Both the position numbers and the translations under genes were made by a program. This document shows positions 14,130 through 45,601 of a DNA stretch of 64,000 nt, in pieces. The stretch lies in the NCBI GenBank assembly GCA_964416155.1, contig CAYQCW010000007.1:25217-89216 (forward strand), written 5' to 3'. The notes under the pieces were generated by a model. The model had not been told where the DNA came from, did no database searches, and saw nothing but the letters and a program-made list of their open reading frames with translations. The DNA is from an uncultured Nitrososphaerota archaeon (GTDB lineage Archaea; Thermoproteota; EX4484-205; JAAOZP01). Each line of letters begins with the position of its first letter. Within the stretch, counting starts at the first letter, position 1.

Positions 14130-14257
14130 GGGCCCGTAGCTCAGACGAGAAAAGTTTAAATATGTCTTGAAGCGTGTGCCACGCGCGGCTCGGAGCAGCA
14201 TGGTAGAGCAGCAGGCTCTTAACCTGAGGGTCGAGGGTTCAAATCCCTCCGGGCCCG
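14130..14257 (+). tRNA. tRNA-Lys (anticodon CUU) with a ~53-nt non-canonical intron in the D-arm region
   Basis: Hand fold: acceptor GGGCCCG/CGGGCCC, D-arm GCTC..AGCATGGTAGAGC, anticodon loop CTCTTAA, T-arm GAGGGTTCAAATCCCTC. The 128-nt span means ~53 nt of insert after the 5' GCTCAG. 27-43 is a G.A mismatch, so the anticodon-stem register is tentative. Confidence 0.6.
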
Positions 14258-27781: not shown

Positions 27782-27912
27782 AGCCCGGTGGAGCCAACTA
27801 GGGTGCCGATTGTAATGGCAAAGCATCGCGCTAAGACATGGGGGGCTTTGGTGCAATTTCGCGCTTGCGGAGAAACCCCTTGATGAGAGTTCGAATCTCT
27901 CCCGGGCTACCA
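27782..27912 (+). tRNA. tRNA-Gln (anticodon UUG) with two introns (D-region ~30 nt and canonical ~23 nt); CCA encoded
   Basis: Acceptor AGCCCGG/CCGGGCU with A73-CCA. Anticodon arm GGGGG CTTTGG[intron]A CCCCT. T-arm GAGAGTTCGAATCTCTC. 131 nt total, so ~53 nt are intronic. Exact D-arm intron boundaries not resolved by eye. Confidence 0.7.
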
Positions 27913-37206: not shown

Positions 37207-37309
37207 CGCCGGCGGGAAGACTCGAACTTCCGACCAACGGGTTAACAGCCTCAGCCTCTTTCCGAGCCCGCTGCTGTGGGCCTTAAACTACCTGCTGAGC
37301 TACGCCGGC
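37207..37309 (-). tRNA. tRNA-Pro (anticodon CGG, tentative) with two introns (12-nt at 22/23 and 18-nt canonical)
   Basis: Acceptor GCCGGCG/CGCCGGC. D-arm GCTCAGCAGGTAG[TTTAAGGCCCAC]AGC. Anticodon arm GCGGG CTCGGA[18 nt]A CCCGT. T-arm GGAAGTTCGAGTCTTCC. 103 nt. A37 rather than G37 makes the identity less certain. Confidence 0.55.
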
Positions 37310-38737: not shown

Positions 38738-39108
38738 GGGGGCTAGGCCCGATGGAAACGTATTTATGATGCCTCTCACAATCTTTTCCTGGGCGGCAGG
38801 TAGGCTCGGGGAGCTCGCCATTCCCTGAACCCGAAACTGGCGACACGCGGGGAGCCGATAACCGTGGGGACAGGGCTGCCTCAACGCAACCGGCTGCAAC
38901 AGGTCTGTGAAAGCCATCCTTACTGGGCAGGAGTAGCAGGCTCGCCTGCCGTAGGGTGGGCGCGTCTGCCTAATTACCGAATCCGCTAGGCCCGGGAGGG
39001 AGCAACGGTCTGGTAAGCTACCTGCGTTGGTAAGGGATGGCTGGAGGGTAAACCTGTTGCGTGTGGGTTGTGATGGAGGGGCTCGACCCTCATGGGGCTG
39101 CCGCCTCT
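38738..39108 (+). ncRNA. Signal recognition particle RNA (7S/SRP RNA)
   Basis: GC-rich ~370-nt noncoding stretch with the helix-8 (domain IV) signature AGGCCCGGGAGGGAGCAACGG, comparable to conserved AGGUCCGGAAGGAAGCAGCC, and Alu-domain-like GGCGGCAGGTAGGCTCGGGG. A T-rich tract follows. End coordinates approximate. Confidence 0.65.
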
Positions 39109-39203: not shown

Positions 39204-41264
39204 ATGATAAAAGTTCTATCAAAGGAACGGTTTCTGAGATGCGACGAGAAAGGGCGGCCGGTGGTTCCAGGCTTTGTGACATACGTCTCAAGGAACAAAC
39301 AGATTCTTCTTCACCGTTTCGGGAGAGAGGATTACTCAGATACTTATGATGATTATATGGACATGTTCAGCTATGATAATGACAGAACATGGACGCAGCC
39401 GGTTCTGCACCTGAAAAGTGTGGATGTCAAGGGGGCAAAATCCGTTACGGCGAGCAAGCAGCTCTTTTCGACTCAGAAACAGAGAAAATTATAGTGGTTA
39501 TTAACAAGTCTTTCTACCCTAACGATACGCTTGACACGGACCTTCCCTACTCCCTAGTCCAAGAAATGTACGACCCGGCAGCAAACACATGGTCCGACTT
39601 AACCCGTTTGGATTTAGATTTTCCTGGCGAAATTGCTGTGAGCTTCTGCAATCCAATAAAAAATATCGAGGGGGCGATTAGTATTCCCCGCGCAGGGCAC
39701 ATACCTTGATGAAAAAGGGCAGCCTGTCCACTATAAGGGTTGCTGGTCGCCAGCAGGCATCATCGTTCATCTCTTAGGAGACTATGGGAAAGACGAGACG
39801 ATTAGGTGGAAACTGAGTAAACCGGTTATCCCTGATTTAGAGAAGACTTCTCGCGGTTTCTACGAACCGGCTGTCGCGGAACTAAAGGACGGGCGTTTCG
39901 CTATGGTTTTGCAGGAGGACAACAGCATGTTTCCCGAGCGCCCAAGGTATAAGTGGATAAGTTTTTCGGATGACCATTGCGAGACCTAGACCGAGCCGGT
40001 GCCCTTACCCTGCGATGGGAACAAGCCCATTGAATCCAGTTCCACTGGCTCTATGCTTTTTCGCTCCATTAAAAACGGCCGGCTCTATTGGATTGGAAAC
40101 TTGTGTATTGAAGGTGCATGGATCTTTGGCGTGTATTGCGAGAAGACTCTGCGTCCTTACGGCAATTTTCCGAGGACACCTCTGGTCATAGCAGAGGTTC
40201 AAGAAAATCCTTTTTCCTTGAAACGCAACACCATAACCGTGATTGACAGGCAGCAGCCTTATGAGCCTCCACAGGTGCAGCTCTCCAACTTTAGGTTTTA
40301 CCAAGACCGTGAGAACAGTGATATCGTCCTTTTCCTAACCCGTTGCAGTGAACGCGCCGCCGAAGCCTGGAAGCTGGCGGATTATTACCGGTATCGGATT
40401 GCCATTTGAAATGGAGGAGACATGTAAATGACACGAAATTGTATCTAAGTAGGCTCCCGCAAACAGGTTTTCCTAGACGAGCGCTTCATAGTGTAGTCGA
40501 AGGGGATAAGGGCGAAAGTTAACCCGCCCTTGGAGCGGCATGAAGTATTGCGGGGAGACCGTCCCTAGGACAGGGGCTGGATCGGCTGGTTGACCGTGTT
40601 AGAGGACGGAGGAGTCTACAAGATGTGGTATATAGCTGCTCCCGAGAGCACTGGAGAAGAAATAGATGGCGGAAAGGCCCTTAGACTCTGCTACGCGGTC
40701 TCCGAGGATGGAGTTAATTGGAGGAAGCCTGAACTCGGGCTCGTGGAGTATGAAGGAAGCAGGAGAAACAACATAGTGCGCATAGAAGGATTCCCAGGCG
40801 GAAGCCCGGAGGGCTCAGTGTTCCTAGACCCGAAGGCTCCTCCTGAACAAAGGTATAAGATGCTTGGTACGCTTTCCCCAGTGTCTACCGCCACTTTCCC
40901 GAGCCTCCGCTGGGCCCTTGTGTGAACGATGGCCTGCTGGAGATTCAGTTGGCCGTGAGCCGTGACGGTGTCCGGTTTCAGCGGCCCGACCGCACCCCCT
41001 ATATTCCGCTTGACGTGAAAGGTACGTGGCACGCCGGCCAGATGTACATGGGGGGTAGGCATGATCAGGAGGGGAAACAGACTTTTCCAATATTATAATG
41101 CTTCAGACATCAGCCATAGTGGATACCGGTGCCCCAAGCCCTTGCCCATTGTGGACATAAGCCGCGTCTTTGTGGCGGTGCAGCTTCTCGACCGTTTCGC
41201 AGGTATCCAGGCCCCGGATGAGGGTTGGCTGCTCACCCCGCCTCTGCGCTTTTCAGGGAACTAG
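39204..41264 (+). pseudogene. BNR/Asp-box beta-propeller glycosidase-like gene, decayed by frameshifts and in-frame stops
   Basis: Asp-box motifs SYDNDRTWTQP and SEDGVNWRKP. Coding signal hops between frames (39204..39494 frame 0, 39389..39709 frame 2, then frame 0 with stops near 39986, 40407, 40923). Confidence 0.6.
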
Positions 41265-41824
41265 TTAGAGTTAAACATAGACTGTGGCGCCACAGGTGAA
41301 GCACTGGTTGAAATAGATGATGAGAATGGGGTTCCGATTCAGGGCTTTAGTCTAGACGAGAGCGACCGGGTGTGGGGAAATCACCTGAGGAAGAAGGCGT
41401 CGTGGAGAAATGGGAAGACAGAGCAGATTTCCCAGATTTCCCCCTTCTGTCAAGACGGGTGCGAACCTGAAGAGATAGTTCAAGGAGCCGATCTTTATAT
41501 CTAAAATATACGTGTTTTTGGATTGTGTAAGATTAAATATCTAACCTTACCCTTACCTTGTGTAATTCTTTAGCGCGCGCTACTCGCTTTCCTAAGCCTA
41601 GAGGATTGGCTTAAGCCTGAGGAGGTTGGGAGGCTAGCTGGGAAGCTGGGCGTTGATCCTAAGATCCTGTTCCTGAGTTTTTCAGACGCTTTGGCCGACG
41701 AGATCGCAAGGAGGTTTTGAGATGAGCGATAAGCCTATTTGGAGCGCGCACGCGCTTCCTGCTCTTCGTCGAGAGAGTTAACCGGCTTAATGATGGAGGA
41801 ACATTAATTTATTAGAACGCCCTG

Positions 41825-41912
41825 GCCGGGATATTCGGTTTTTAACTTTCGAACCCGGGTCGGGAGGGTGACAGCCTCCAATGCTAACCTTTACACCACC
41901 AGGGCTCGGGTG
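41825..41912 (-). tRNA. tRNA-Asp (anticodon GUC) with a 16-nt non-canonical intron in the T-loop
   Basis: Acceptor GCCCTGG/CCAGGGC. Anticodon arm GGAGG CTGTCAC CCTCC. T-arm CCGGG TTCGAAA[GTTAAAAACCGAATAT]CCCGG. 88 nt. Not flagged by any ORF. Confidence 0.6.
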
Positions 41913-42106
41913 TAGGAGTTTTTGAGGGCAAATAAATCTTTTGCTACAGTTACGCTTGAGCCTTATTTGTCAGATAGTAGTGATGAACCCTGAGCCAGGG
42001 AAGTACATAAGTAGAGTTTCTTACCCATACTGGAACAAGTGCAGGGTCTTAATTTCGAGGAGAAGAGCATTTCATAGATTTCTACTGTGAACGCAAAATT
42101 CTGATA

Positions 42107-42265
42107 ATGGAGCTGGCAGTTGAGAAAATAAACGAATTGATTAAAAACACTGGATACCAATATTACAAAATAGACTTATTTCTCATTGCTTCGAGTATGC
42201 AATATTATATCGTGTTCATACCCACTGAAGTTGAGAAGCTTGAAAAGGAAAGAAGTTGGAAGCTT
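42107..42265 (+). CDS. Small ORF 'Y' (52 aa), paralog of 52269..52454
   Basis: MELAVEKINELIKNTGYQYYKI... versus ...VNRINELIKDAGYQYYRL at the second locus. Confidence 0.3.
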
Positions 42266-42384
42266 TAATTGATGATCTAGTTGACAAAATAAGGTGCTAT
42301 TCCTCACCTTACCTGTAATTTGAATTAGGCTCTATTTCTTTATAGAGCTTAATCCCAGTGCAGGTATAACCGGATTCTGTTTGC

Positions 42385-42570
42385 TCAATCCGAATTTGTA
42401 CCACTACTACGATACCATACTTCACATTCCAGCCTATTAAAATAATCTTCCACTTGCCTTATCTCATTACCTATACGACCAGTAATATCTCGAAACACCG
42501 TTCCCTTTATTTCAACTATCGCCATCAATTTATCTTCAGAGTAAACTTGGATGGCTGGTCCTTGTTTCAT
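42385..42570 (-). CDS. Small ORF 'X' C-terminal module with hhAIhEIKxT motif, paralog of 52451..52783
   Basis: YSEDKLMAIVEIKGT...VEDYF versus YHKSELVAIIEIKTT...LKDYF. Upstream minus-strand coding remnants are also homologous between the loci. Confidence 0.35.
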   Translation of the reverse strand: MKQGPAIQVYSEDKLMAIVEIKGTVFRDITGRIGNEIRQVEDYFNRLECEVWYRSSGTNSD

Positions 42571-42952
42571 GCATCCGCTGGTTTTTAAGCCCCTCCTTCG
42601 GAAGCCCAGTCAGCCTGGATATTTCTTCCTTAATATTATCAATATTTAAGAATACTTATTCTTCATCAACCTTCTCAATTAACTCTTTAATTTCTTCCTC
42701 CTCCTTTAACATTTCCATGTTAAGCTTATCCACAATCTCCTGAGCCAGCCTTTTAACGATAGTCCCTGAATCCTCGAGGTATATTCTATGGGCAAGAGGC
42801 CCTTATTTTTATCGTGCGCTACATATTTGCTTAACGCTTTCCACATCCCCTTTAAAGGTTAGAGTAAACACTTAGGAGAAAGTTGTGAAAGTGATTATTG
42901 GGCACAATAACGAAGGGCCCCGATTTTTCGCGTTCCTCCTATTCAACTCCTT

Positions 42953-43390
42953 TCAGGGCTTGATTCTAACTAGGCTATAAATCACGCAGGGGATGAAGTA
43001 AAACTGCCATCCGAGGGTTAGGAGCTGGACTACGTAGGGTGGTTCAAGCGTTAAGGCAAACCATAACGTGAACAGGAGCATGGATATGAGGCTGGAAGCT
43101 ATGGCTAGCAGCCAAGGGATCCTACTCCTCGGTTTAAGCCGCTCAACCAGGCTTCCAAGGATGTAGGCCAACGAGAGGAGTAACCAGCTGACAAGGCTTA
43201 TTAGATGTTCAGCAGTTTGGTACTGAGGATTGGAAACGTAAGCTGAGAAGAGTAGTGCAAACAGCACGAAGAAGATAATGAAAGCGGATAGTGTAAAATG
43301 GATCTTCAATAATACCCGGTCAATCATCCTCCGAATCACAACTCTATACGACAACTTGTTTTCCCCCTCAACTATGGACATCCCATACAT
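42953..43390 (-). CDS. Four-TM membrane protein
   Basis: 145 aa, hydrophobic. Confidence 0.35.
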   Translation of the reverse strand: MYGMSIVEGENKLSYRVVIRRMIDRVLLKIHFTLSAFIIFFVLFALLFSAYVSNPQYQTAEHLISLVSWLLLSLAYILGSLVERLKPRSRIPWLLAIASSLISMLLFTLWFALTLEPPYVVQLLTLGWQFYFIPCVIYSLVRIKP

Positions 43391-44022
43391 TCCGGCAAGT
43401 AGCTCGTATCAGGAGTGCAATTGCGGCAATAGGACCTCCAACTGACGCAGTTTATGTAAAAGCAAGAGGGGCAAAAAAGTCCGACGTACATTATAAAAAC
43501 AACAAGGTCTGGAAGATAACGCGCACAAATAGCGCAACACAGAACAACCCCAGGTATGTCATAAGCAAGGCATTCTTGAAAACAGAATTGGCAGGTACCG
43601 CATGGTGGTGAACAGGGCGGTGGCGGTACGCCGGTTAGGAGGAACTCATGATTAAGTACCTGATTACTCTGAATTGTGGGTGTAAGCTTGCCTCCAGTTA
43701 CCTGGCCTTTTTCAGCCCTGACCAAAACCTCTAGGACGCGATAATCTTCATCTACTCTATACGCCGTTGCTTCCTGATACGGTTTCACGAATACTACAAC
43801 AAAAACTAACCTTGATTTAGGATCTCCGGCAAATCTTATCCCAACTACTACGTACTCGGTTGGTTTATAATCTATAATCTTTTCAGCCCTCATAGCAAGG
43901 GAGTCCTTCAAAGAAAGTTGGTACCCTATCTCAGATAAGATTGAAGCGACTAGCTGGAATTCCTTTGCGCTTAATGCTTTTTCTACTGCTTCCTCCTCTT
44001 TAATTAGGATACTATTGTTCAC
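43372..44022 (-). CDS. Hypothetical protein with alpha/beta N-domain and unusual Cys-rich C-terminus
   Basis: N-terminal 150 aa ordinary; C-terminal 60 aa carries about 17 Cys (PPPPCSPPCGTCQFCFQEC...CCAICARY...CPSCFYINC...CRNCTP...CMGCP). Confidence 0.35.
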   Translation of the reverse strand: MNNSILIKEEEAVEKALSAKEFQLVASILSEIGYQLSLKDSLAMRAEKIIDYKPTEYVVVGIRFAGDPKSRLVFVVVFVKPYQEATAYRVDEDYRVLEVLVRAEKGQVTGGKLTPTIQSNQVLNHEFLLTGVPPPPCSPPCGTCQFCFQECLAYDIPGVVLCCAICARYLPDLVVFIMYVGLFCPSCFYINCVSWRSYCRNCTPDTSYLPECMGCP

Positions 44023-44240
44023 CTTCTCCTATTACTCCCTGAAGAGAAAAAGGCGGAGGCGATATTTATATTATTTTTAATTACGATATAATATAACACG
44101 TGCTTAGTATTGGTATTTTAATTTCTCGCTGTTAATCTTGTTGTCTTATGTTGTGTATATACATATCTTATTATAGTTTTAAAAAAATATAAATGGGAGG
44201 TTATTCTAACTATAAAACATGAAAAAGGGAGGGTGGGTGT

Positions 44241-44933
44241 TTGGGAAGGATTGATATCAATCAACACGGACGGATAATTGAGCGGGCGATTATAGTGACA
44301 TTGTTGATAGCGATTCCAGTGTTAATAAGCGTCACGCAAACCACTGCCCAAGGCGTTAGGTACTATGCAGGATACTATTTTTACGGTTATGAGGGTGCTT
44401 CACCTCCTTATGGAGTATCCGGCAGAATATATACCGTTAATAAGAACGTGCCCACGGGTCATTTCTACGCGCAGTGGCCTACTGTCATACTCAGTTATGT
44501 CTACGGGTTTCGGGTTCAGGTAGGCTATACTAAAGGTTGGGATACCAACTATCAGTTGACATGGTACGCGGAGAAGAATGACTGGAACGGTTGGGAAATT
44601 CGCTGGACTGGCACCCCGAGCGCTGGGGCCACGTACAATTATTGGATAGAGAGATATGAGAATAGCGGCGTCTGGGTCGGCGGGGTCTCTGGCTATTGGA
44701 TGTGGGACTTCGGGACACTTAACCCCAACGTGGCGGTGGATTACCAAGCATTCAGCGAAACCACAACCACTGGAATAAATATCGATGGAACGCACTTCAG
44801 TAACCTATGCATCCTTAGCTACAATGGGATCGACTGGATCCCTTGGTACAGGCATGTTCCCAAGGAGGCTCGTCCTTATTACTGGCTTACACAAGTCTCC
44901 GATTGTGAGTTTTACGCTTGGGGTGGTGGCTGA
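44241..44933 (+). CDS. Secreted Trp/Tyr/Gly-rich protein (TTG start)
   Basis: N-terminal TM/signal (IVTLLIAIPVLISV), then an aromatic-rich probable beta-sandwich. Very AT-rich upstream region. Confidence 0.45.
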   Translation: MGRIDINQHGRIIERAIIVTLLIAIPVLISVTQTTAQGVRYYAGYYFYGYEGASPPYGVSGRIYTVNKNVPTGHFYAQWPTVILSYVYGFRVQVGYTKGWDTNYQLTWYAEKNDWNGWEIRWTGTPSAGATYNYWIERYENSGVWVGGVSGYWMWDFGTLNPNVAVDYQAFSETTTTGINIDGTHFSNLCILSYNGIDWIPWYRHVPKEARPYYWLTQVSDCEFYAWGGG

Positions 44934-45553
44934 TGGCTCGGGTTGGAAGTATGCTCCTTATAGTGCTTTTGGCAGTCATGGCTATGGGTGTAATCGTAGG
45001 GAACTACATTGTGCCCAAGCAATACGCGAACATGACCCCAGATTCTACTGCGTATGAAGCTTCCCCAAGAGGCCCCGCACCCTTCCCTGGTGAGATTGTT
45101 CCCCTGGATACTGTGGTCAGCCAGCTGGCCAATAAGGGGTTTACGCTCCACCTGCCCACGAAGATGATGAGGGGAATGAAGCTCACAGCCGTGTGGGCTA
45201 AGGTTCTCGATGGGCAGGTTAGCTTCCCCATAATAGTAGTCTACAGCAACACTGGGGACAAAGCCATCGAGACGGCGGAAATCGGAATAGAAATAGCACC
45301 CATGCCTGAAATTCCCTTCCATGTGACCAATAGCTCAACCGACAGATTCGATAGGGTGGGCGAGTGGATGGCATTCGTCTCCAGCAGAGCACCAATGGGT
45401 TATAGAGAATATTATCTGAAGTATGGCACGGAGTACGCATATCTTGTAGATATAAAGATCGGCTCCTTGAACTATCTCTTCAGGTTCGCACCCGTCTTGA
45501 CAGAGGAGGAGATCATGGAAATCTGTCAAAGCATGAGGCCCATGGTGCCATAG
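44918..45553 (+). CDS. N-terminally membrane-anchored protein, co-operonic with 44241..44933
   Basis: Start overlaps the upstream gene's end; TM SMLLIVLLAVMAMGVIVG. Confidence 0.45.
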   Translation: MGWWLMARVGSMLLIVLLAVMAMGVIVGNYIVPKQYANMTPDSTAYEASPRGPAPFPGEIVPLDTVVSQLANKGFTLHLPTKMMRGMKLTAVWAKVLDGQVSFPIIVVYSNTGDKAIETAEIGIEIAPMPEIPFHVTNSSTDRFDRVGEWMAFVSSRAPMGYREYYLKYGTEYAYLVDIKIGSLNYLFRFAPVLTEEEIMEICQSMRPMVP

Positions 45554-45601
45554 AAAATAACTGGAACACGCTTGATTAGAAAGGCTCATCTTCGCAAGCT
45601 G

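Follow-up and report, generated by a model that had tools for sequence, protein, structure and literature searches.

A tRNA-Asp(GUC) gene with a predicted 16-nt intron at position 59/60 of the T-loop in an uncultured Thermoproteota/TACK archaeon

The minus strand at positions 41818–41905 of the window (the whole 64-kb stretch of DNA analysed here) most probably carries a functional tRNA-Asp(GUC) gene of an uncultured Thermoproteota/TACK archaeon, interrupted by a 16-nt intron at position 59/60, within the T-loop. We put the probability of this reading at about 92%. We infer that the tRNA-Asp is transcribed, cleaved, ligated and aminoacylated. Transcription would start from a TATA-box promoter located ~28 nt upstream, and the T-stem of the precursor would be extended into a helix-bulge-helix-bulge-helix motif, in which two 3-nt bulges lie 4 bp apart. 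EndA would then cut within the two bulges, on the 3′ side of A59 and on the 5′ side of U60, and an RtcB-type ligase would join the exons, restoring the T-loop UUCGAAU. The CCA end would be added post-transcriptionally.

Gene structure and splicing motif

The gene is 88 nt long with the intron included (41818–41905, minus strand), as determined by reading of the sequence, by ARAGORN on the spliced form, by the covariance model R1 described below, and by comparison with orthologues. In the order of the minus strand, the elements are GCCCTGG-TG-GTGT-AAAGGTTA-GCAT-T-GGAGG-CTGTCAC-CCTCC-CGAC-CCGGG-TTCGAA-[AGTTAAAAACCGAATA]-T-CCCGG-CCAGGGC-G, with the intron in the outer brackets. The 5′ exon (58 nt, 41848–41905, minus strand) consists of the 5′ strand of the acceptor, the D-arm, the anticodon arm, the variable region, the 5′ strand of the T-stem and positions 54–59 of the T-loop (TTCGAA). 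Its anticodon, GTC (Asp), at 41870–41872 on the same strand, follows from both the sequence and the ARAGORN call. The intron, AGTTAAAAACCGAATA, occupies 41832–41847 on the minus strand, its splice sites being placed by the bulge-helix-bulge geometry. The 3′ exon (14 nt, 41818–41831, minus strand) contains T60, the T-stem strand CCCGG, the acceptor strand CCAGGGC and the discriminator G73, and CCA is not encoded.

With the intron taken out, the acceptor stem (GCCCTGG/CCAGGGC) has 7 bp, the D-stem 4 bp, the anticodon stem 5 bp, and the T-stem (CCGGG/CCCGG) 5 bp, while the anticodon and T loops have 7 nt. The D-arm, GTGT-AAAGGTTA-GCAT, includes the pair G10.U25, the variable region is CGAC, and the discriminator is a G. 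ARAGORN identifies the spliced 72-mer as tRNA-Asp(gtc), and RNAfold folds it into a clean cloverleaf at −31.6 kcal/mol. The tertiary nucleotides that were checked (U8, A14, G18-G19, U33, G53, T54-Psi55-C56, A58, and C61) are all present in the sequence, as T8, A14, a GG in the D-loop AAAGGTTA, T33, G53, TTCGAAT, and C61. The gene also has all the nucleotides, G73, C38, G10.U25 and the anticodon GUC, that we take to be of the Asp identity type, a set that comes from yeast and E. coli. Position G10.U25 is likewise a G.U pair in 28 of 29 archaeal tRNA-Asp genes that have a single T-loop intron and are distant from the window, its own clade being left out (hereafter the distant genes).

These results bear out the main claim of an earlier note on this DNA, which had proposed a tRNA-Asp(GUC) with a 16-nt T-loop intron of the 59/60 type; the cloverleaf that it described on the minus strand is found with the acceptor, the anticodon arm GGAGG-CTGTCAC-CCTCC and the T-stem as it gave them. 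Two details have to be amended. The interval proposed there, 41825–41912, is the right locus with its ends shifted by 7 nt, so that 7 nt of leader were added and the last 7 nt of the gene were lost. The intron was correctly given as 16 nt long and in the T-loop, but the geometry of the motif puts the splice sites one base further 5′, and the resulting T-loop is therefore the canonical UUCGAAU and not UUCGAAA.

The splicing motif extends over 41826–41858 (minus strand) and was derived from the minimum-free-energy fold together with comparative pairing. The outer helix, h, is the 5-bp T-stem CCGGG/CCCGG. The central helix has 4 bp and is formed by T-loop positions 54–57, TTCG (41853–41850), and the sequence CGAA (41837–41834) near the 3′ end of the insertion. 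It is flanked by two bulges of 3 nt on opposite strands, AAA (41849–41847) and TAT (41833–41831), which are 4 bp apart and contain the splice sites. The inner stem, h′, is GTT/AAC (3 bp) closed by a loop AAA (41846–41838). The elements of an hBHBh′ motif, i.e., opposite 3-nt bulges, a 4-bp helix between them, splice sites within the bulges, and flanking helices h and h′, are thus all found. Of these elements, the minimum-free-energy fold displays both the outer and the central helix as well as the bulge on the 3′ side; the inner stem, which is short and A/U-rich, is open in RNAfold at 37 °C.

The pairing was compared in 96 genes, namely the window gene and the 95 genome stretches returned by the pattern scan described below. 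The central helix has four of four pairs in 76 of them and three of four in 19. Base 57 of the T-loop covaries with its partner in the intron, the combinations TTCG/CGAA and TTCA/TGAA occurring 37 and 25 times, respectively, in the 96 genes, and among the 29 distant genes the pair is A:U in 18 and G:C in 6. The cloverleaf plus motif is 94.2% paired in the distant genes, as compared to at most 53% when the registers are slid by 1–3 columns. The insertion ranges from 15 to 36 nt across the 96 genes, with constraint confined to the parts that make up the motif. Judged from these substitutions, compensatory changes have preserved the splicing motif.

Detection by search tools and other tRNAs of the window

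ARAGORN makes no call on the genomic DNA of the locus, even with its intron option. The Rfam tRNA model RF00005 gives the unspliced locus 21.3 bits, below its gathering threshold of 29, in an alignment that is wrong and truncated. Such a score is to be expected, because this model cannot skip an insertion in the T-loop. A covariance model, R1, was built from the 29 distant genes. When run on the 64 kb, R1 recovers exactly 41818–41905 (minus strand) over its full length, with 88.7 bits, an E-value of 2.1e-17 and every pair standard; the runner-up in the window, an ordinary tRNA, reaches 26.6 bits. The covariance-model scan that the earlier note had suggested as a check on the fold thus came out in its favor.

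The note had also called the gene cryptic. This description holds for tools that are unable to skip non-canonical introns, but it does not apply to the default search of tRNAscan-SE 2.0, which looks for such introns and has reported 673 of them in 217 archaeal genomes (PMC8450103). At least three tRNAs of the window (Asp, Asn, and Lys-CUU) are missed or truncated by ARAGORN and Rfam, and tRNAscan-SE 2.0 in archaeal mode should recover all three. A genome can in this way seem to be without a tRNA that it actually has. The lesson for annotation is that, in intron-rich archaea, essential tRNA genes go unreported, without any warning, by ARAGORN and the generic Rfam tRNA model.

At least four other tRNAs of the window contain introns, both canonical and non-canonical, the latter in at least two of them, so that the organism depends on tRNA splicing. 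The tRNA-Asn(GUU) at 37207–37309 (minus strand), with a perfect acceptor stem and T-arm, is missed by ARAGORN and falls short of the Rfam gathering threshold. It has two non-canonical introns, one of 12 nt (TTTAAGGCCCAC) interrupting the D-stem at about 22/23 and one of 18 nt (CTCGGAAAGAGGCTGAGG) at about 31/32, and the 73-mer spliced by hand is called tRNA-Asn by ARAGORN. The tRNA-Lys(CUU) at 14130–14257 (plus strand) has a D-loop intron of ~54 nt. Here, Rfam gave only the 3′ part (14186–14257), with mismatched 5′ stems, while the hand-spliced 74-mer is called Lys(ctt) by ARAGORN. A further tRNA-like candidate of 128 nt at 27782–27909 (plus strand) has a perfect 7-bp acceptor AGCCCGG/CCGGGCT, with A1:U72, and a T-arm GAGAG-TTCGAAT-CTCTC. 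It is probably a tRNA-Gln(UUG) with a 37/38 intron and at least one more in the D region; removal of single segments followed by ARAGORN proved too permissive to fix its exon structure.

Conservation, genomic surroundings and alternative readings

Four orthologues of the gene were compared, whose flanks share between ~74 and 91% nucleotide identity with the window. In L090 ("Crenarchaeota archaeon SKW236", 88–91%), the intron has 20 nt with the inner sequence GTAC..GTGC. L011 ("Thermoproteota archaeon JZ-1_201901_bins_10", ~74%) and L027, which is the same as metagenome contig L100 (~79%), both have introns of 15 nt with GC..GC, and L101 (~80%) has one of 27 nt with AGAAATA..TATTTCT. The best relative of the window in the genome collection has an identity of ~88–91%. 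The exons are near-invariant in the four orthologues, while the introns sit at the same site with unrelated inner sequences, each with an inner stem. In the orthologues, h′ has 2–7 bp and is built from different sequences. A metagenome scan allowing insertions of 0–30 nt found no intronless allele with the exons of the window gene. An independently assembled contig of 4,003 bp, from three samples, is 100% identical to window positions 41474–45476.

A putative archaeal promoter is located at 41930–41944 (minus strand). It contains the TATA-like sequence TTTATTT (41936–41930), centred ~28 nt before the start of the gene and preceded by the purine-rich GCAAAAGA. L090 has the 15-nt block AAAGATTTATTTGCC unchanged, and the core GxTTTA of the block is invariant in the four orthologues, consistent with the TATA-like box acting as the promoter. 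Taken on sequence comparison, the pattern of conservation indicates that the gene works and that it and its splicing motif are under purifying selection.

In the four orthologues, the tRNA-Asp gene is 0.25–1.3 kb away from the gene of aRF1, and the two are oriented to each other as they are in the window. Here the spacer between the two genes (41950–45600) measures 3.65 kb, as compared to the 0.25–1.3 kb of the relatives, and contains a stretch of 35–38% GC (42000–42750) and four ORFs for which Pfam gives no family. The difference points to an insertion of 2.4–3.4 kb beside a syntenic tRNA-Asp gene. On the 3′ side of the gene, L090, L100 and L101 have a homologue of the window's 54.2–58 kb region in reverse orientation, which implies that ~41.8–54.3 kb of the window (~12.5 kb) is inverted relative to these three. 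One of the breakpoints lies immediately 3′ of the tRNA-Asp gene and the other near 54.2–54.3 kb; no repeat common to both was found.

The 4-kb segment that holds the tRNA-Asp gene and the AT-rich spacer is bracketed by an inverted repeat of ~90 nt, with arms at 41424–41515 and 45435–45525 (92% identical over 75 nt, of which a core of ~59 nt matches perfectly). Its left arm duplicates, in decayed and fragmentary form, the 3′ (C-terminal coding) end of ORF 44918–45553. Public short-read contigs end exactly in the two arms of this repeat, L001 and L002 at 41475 and L102 with a span of 41474–45476. An AT-rich spacer beside a tRNA gene could be taken for a tRNA-targeted integrated element. This idea finds no support, as no partial tRNA copies longer than 12 nt, i.e., possible attachment sites, are present across the 64-kb window.

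On the other side of the gene, the region 39204–41720 (plus strand), extending to ~41.75 kb, is made up of short ORFs on the same strand and of frames interrupted by stops, and looks like the decayed remains of one gene or several. The frame breaks are repeated in the public contigs L001 and L002, which are 100% identical to it. Pfam searches of ten neighboring ORFs and fragments assigned no family, an MFS match lying below the threshold, and the top match of the best-looking fragment in a PDB sequence search, a GH130-type phosphorylase, is not significant (E 0.23). The glycosidase pseudogene proposed earlier could thus not be confirmed. Likewise, the description of the locus as a junk region is apt for the stop-interrupted frames at 39.2–41.75 kb and for the 35–38% GC of 42.0–42.75 kb, but not for the tRNA gene itself, which is syntenic and adjoins aRF1 in five related genomes. 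We attribute the odd surroundings to the insertion and the inversion breakpoint. The surroundings are unusual, but the tRNA-Asp gene is, by the evidence of synteny, an old resident and not a relic. Desulfurococcales are already known to have rearrangements beside tRNA-Asp (PMC3218864), and the present locus adds one more tRNA-Asp at a rearrangement or insertion boundary.

Two further observations concern this neighborhood. An exact-protein look-up of the ORF encoding aRF1 (503 aa) gave no match, probably because a different start had been called, while that of ORF 42953–43390 was matched. An archaeal SRP RNA (Rfam RF01857, 133 bits) is found at 38793–39104 (plus strand), ~2.7 kb from the tRNA-Asp gene.

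The position of the gene, between stop-interrupted frames and a variable AT-rich spacer and at an inversion breakpoint, is what one might expect of a pseudo-tRNA, i.e., a copy disabled where a rearrangement or insertion took place, its function being carried out by another tRNA-Asp gene elsewhere in the genome. A single tRNA-Asp(GUC) gene is usual in archaeal genomes; it is not universal, as three MAGs have two contigs each with a T-loop-intron tRNA-Asp. A disabled copy would, however, hardly be expected to retain perfect stems and intact identity elements, to show conserved exons and promoter next to an intron interior that is free to vary, to accumulate compensatory changes that maintain the splicing motif, and to keep its ancestral place beside aRF1. 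We therefore consider the pseudo-tRNA, a recently inactivated copy included, unlikely.

The two other alternatives concern the insertion and the fold themselves. If the 16 nt were retained, the mature tRNA would have an enlarged T-loop of 23 nt. Such a loop would abolish the elbow formed by the D-loop and the T-loop, which to our knowledge all elongator tRNAs need. In addition, the insertion is an exact substrate of the splicing endonuclease, and its length varies from gene to gene (15–36 nt), with constraint only on the parts that the motif requires. Retention is on these grounds very improbable. That standard tools do not report the locus could also be read as a sign of a cloverleaf-like fold arising by chance in non-coding DNA. 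The comparative data refute this, since R1 matches the locus with an E-value of 2e-17, orthologues occur in five genomes and independent assemblies contain a 100% identical sequence, and the probability left to a chance fold is close to nil.

Distribution and relation to known introns

The genome collection was scanned with a pattern for tRNA-Asp 3′ halves having 6–36 extra bases in the T-loop, and hence for interrupted genes only. A T-loop-interrupted tRNA-Asp(GUC) was found in 95 genome stretches from several archaeal phyla, a number that is a lower bound, the pattern having a fixed T-stem sequence. According to the record titles, 52 of the stretches belong to Nitrososphaeria/Thaumarchaeota, 25 to DPANN (Woese-, Nano-, Micr- and Aenigmatarchaeota), 6 to Thermoproteota/Crenarchaeota, and one to Promethearchaeota (an Asgard MAG), while 4 are labelled Methanosarcinales and 7 are unclassified. 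The three MAGs with two such contigs each are represented by the pairs L033/L050, L039/L051 and L007/L053, which are either duplicates or strain mixtures within a bin.

The statement of the earlier note that T-loop introns of the 59/60 type are among the rarest in archaeal tRNAs is not supported by this count, nor by the literature. Position 59/60 is listed in a review among the recognised sites of non-canonical introns (PMC4090602), and the T-loop is elsewhere named as a regular place for introns (PMC3241643). In ARMAN-2, pre-tRNA-Cys(GCA) and pre-tRNA-Pro(GGG) have 59/60 introns, that of tRNA-Cys being cut in vitro by the endonuclease of the organism, and according to the authors the intron positions of ARMAN-2 overlap with the sites into which introns have mainly been inserted in other archaea (PMC3239211). 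The architecture found here is hence already known, and the current understanding is unchanged.

The present intron shares with the 59/60 introns of ARMAN-2 (PMC3239211) the position in the T-loop, splice sites defined by the motif, and the short length, 13 nt in the tRNA-Cys of ARMAN-2 and 16 nt here. It differs from the tRNA-Cys case in the isotype, Asp, in the Thermoproteota-like lineage, and in having a strict hBHBh′ motif in place of a relaxed hBH. A further likeness is to the canonical 37/38 intron of archaea and eukaryotes. In each, a 5-bp stem closes a loop of 7 nt that is interrupted between its positions 6 and 7, and loop nucleotides 1–4 pair with a sequence in the intron's 3′ part; one set of enzymes would be expected to act on both. 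This match in geometry is our inference from the sequence, the description of the motif being that of PMC3239211 and PMC4090602. The obvious difference is that the intron here interrupts the T-loop and not the anticodon loop, so that the precursor would be without the T-loop/D-loop elbow until it is spliced. The same processing junction is also used by permuted tRNA genes that are joined at 59/60 (PMC3218864, Table 1); those are circularly permuted, whereas the present gene is collinear with a simple intron.

As to the origin of the tRNA-Asp 59/60 intron, we can offer a tentative proposal, which we consider possible but doubtful: it is either one ancient, vertically inherited intron or one that has arisen recurrently through the palindromic T-loop UUCGAA. 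In the former case, a single orthologous intron may be common to Nitrososphaeria, other Thermoproteota, several DPANN lineages and the Asgard MAG, and it may be a non-canonical intron unlike the recent gains of the transposition type described for Thermoproteales. In the latter, a duplication of UUCGAA may yield a second copy that pairs with the first, so that the splicing motif forms automatically. If either were true, it would explain why one site in one tRNA is so widely interrupted. The wide distribution and the conserved geometry fit an ancient intron, recurrent origin and ordinary independent gains alike.

With the other T-loop-intron tRNA-Asp(GUC) genes, the window gene has in common the insertion site, the central helix between positions 54–57 and the intron, and the 3-nt bulges, while the length and the inner sequence of the intron differ. 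It differs from many of them also in its uninterrupted 5′ half. In a test for matching acceptor strands, ~60 of the 96 genes (the scanned stretches being L005–L099) have no contiguous 5′ half, which implies additional introns or a split upstream of the anticodon. In L027/L100, a second intron is located in the D-loop of the tRNA-Asp.
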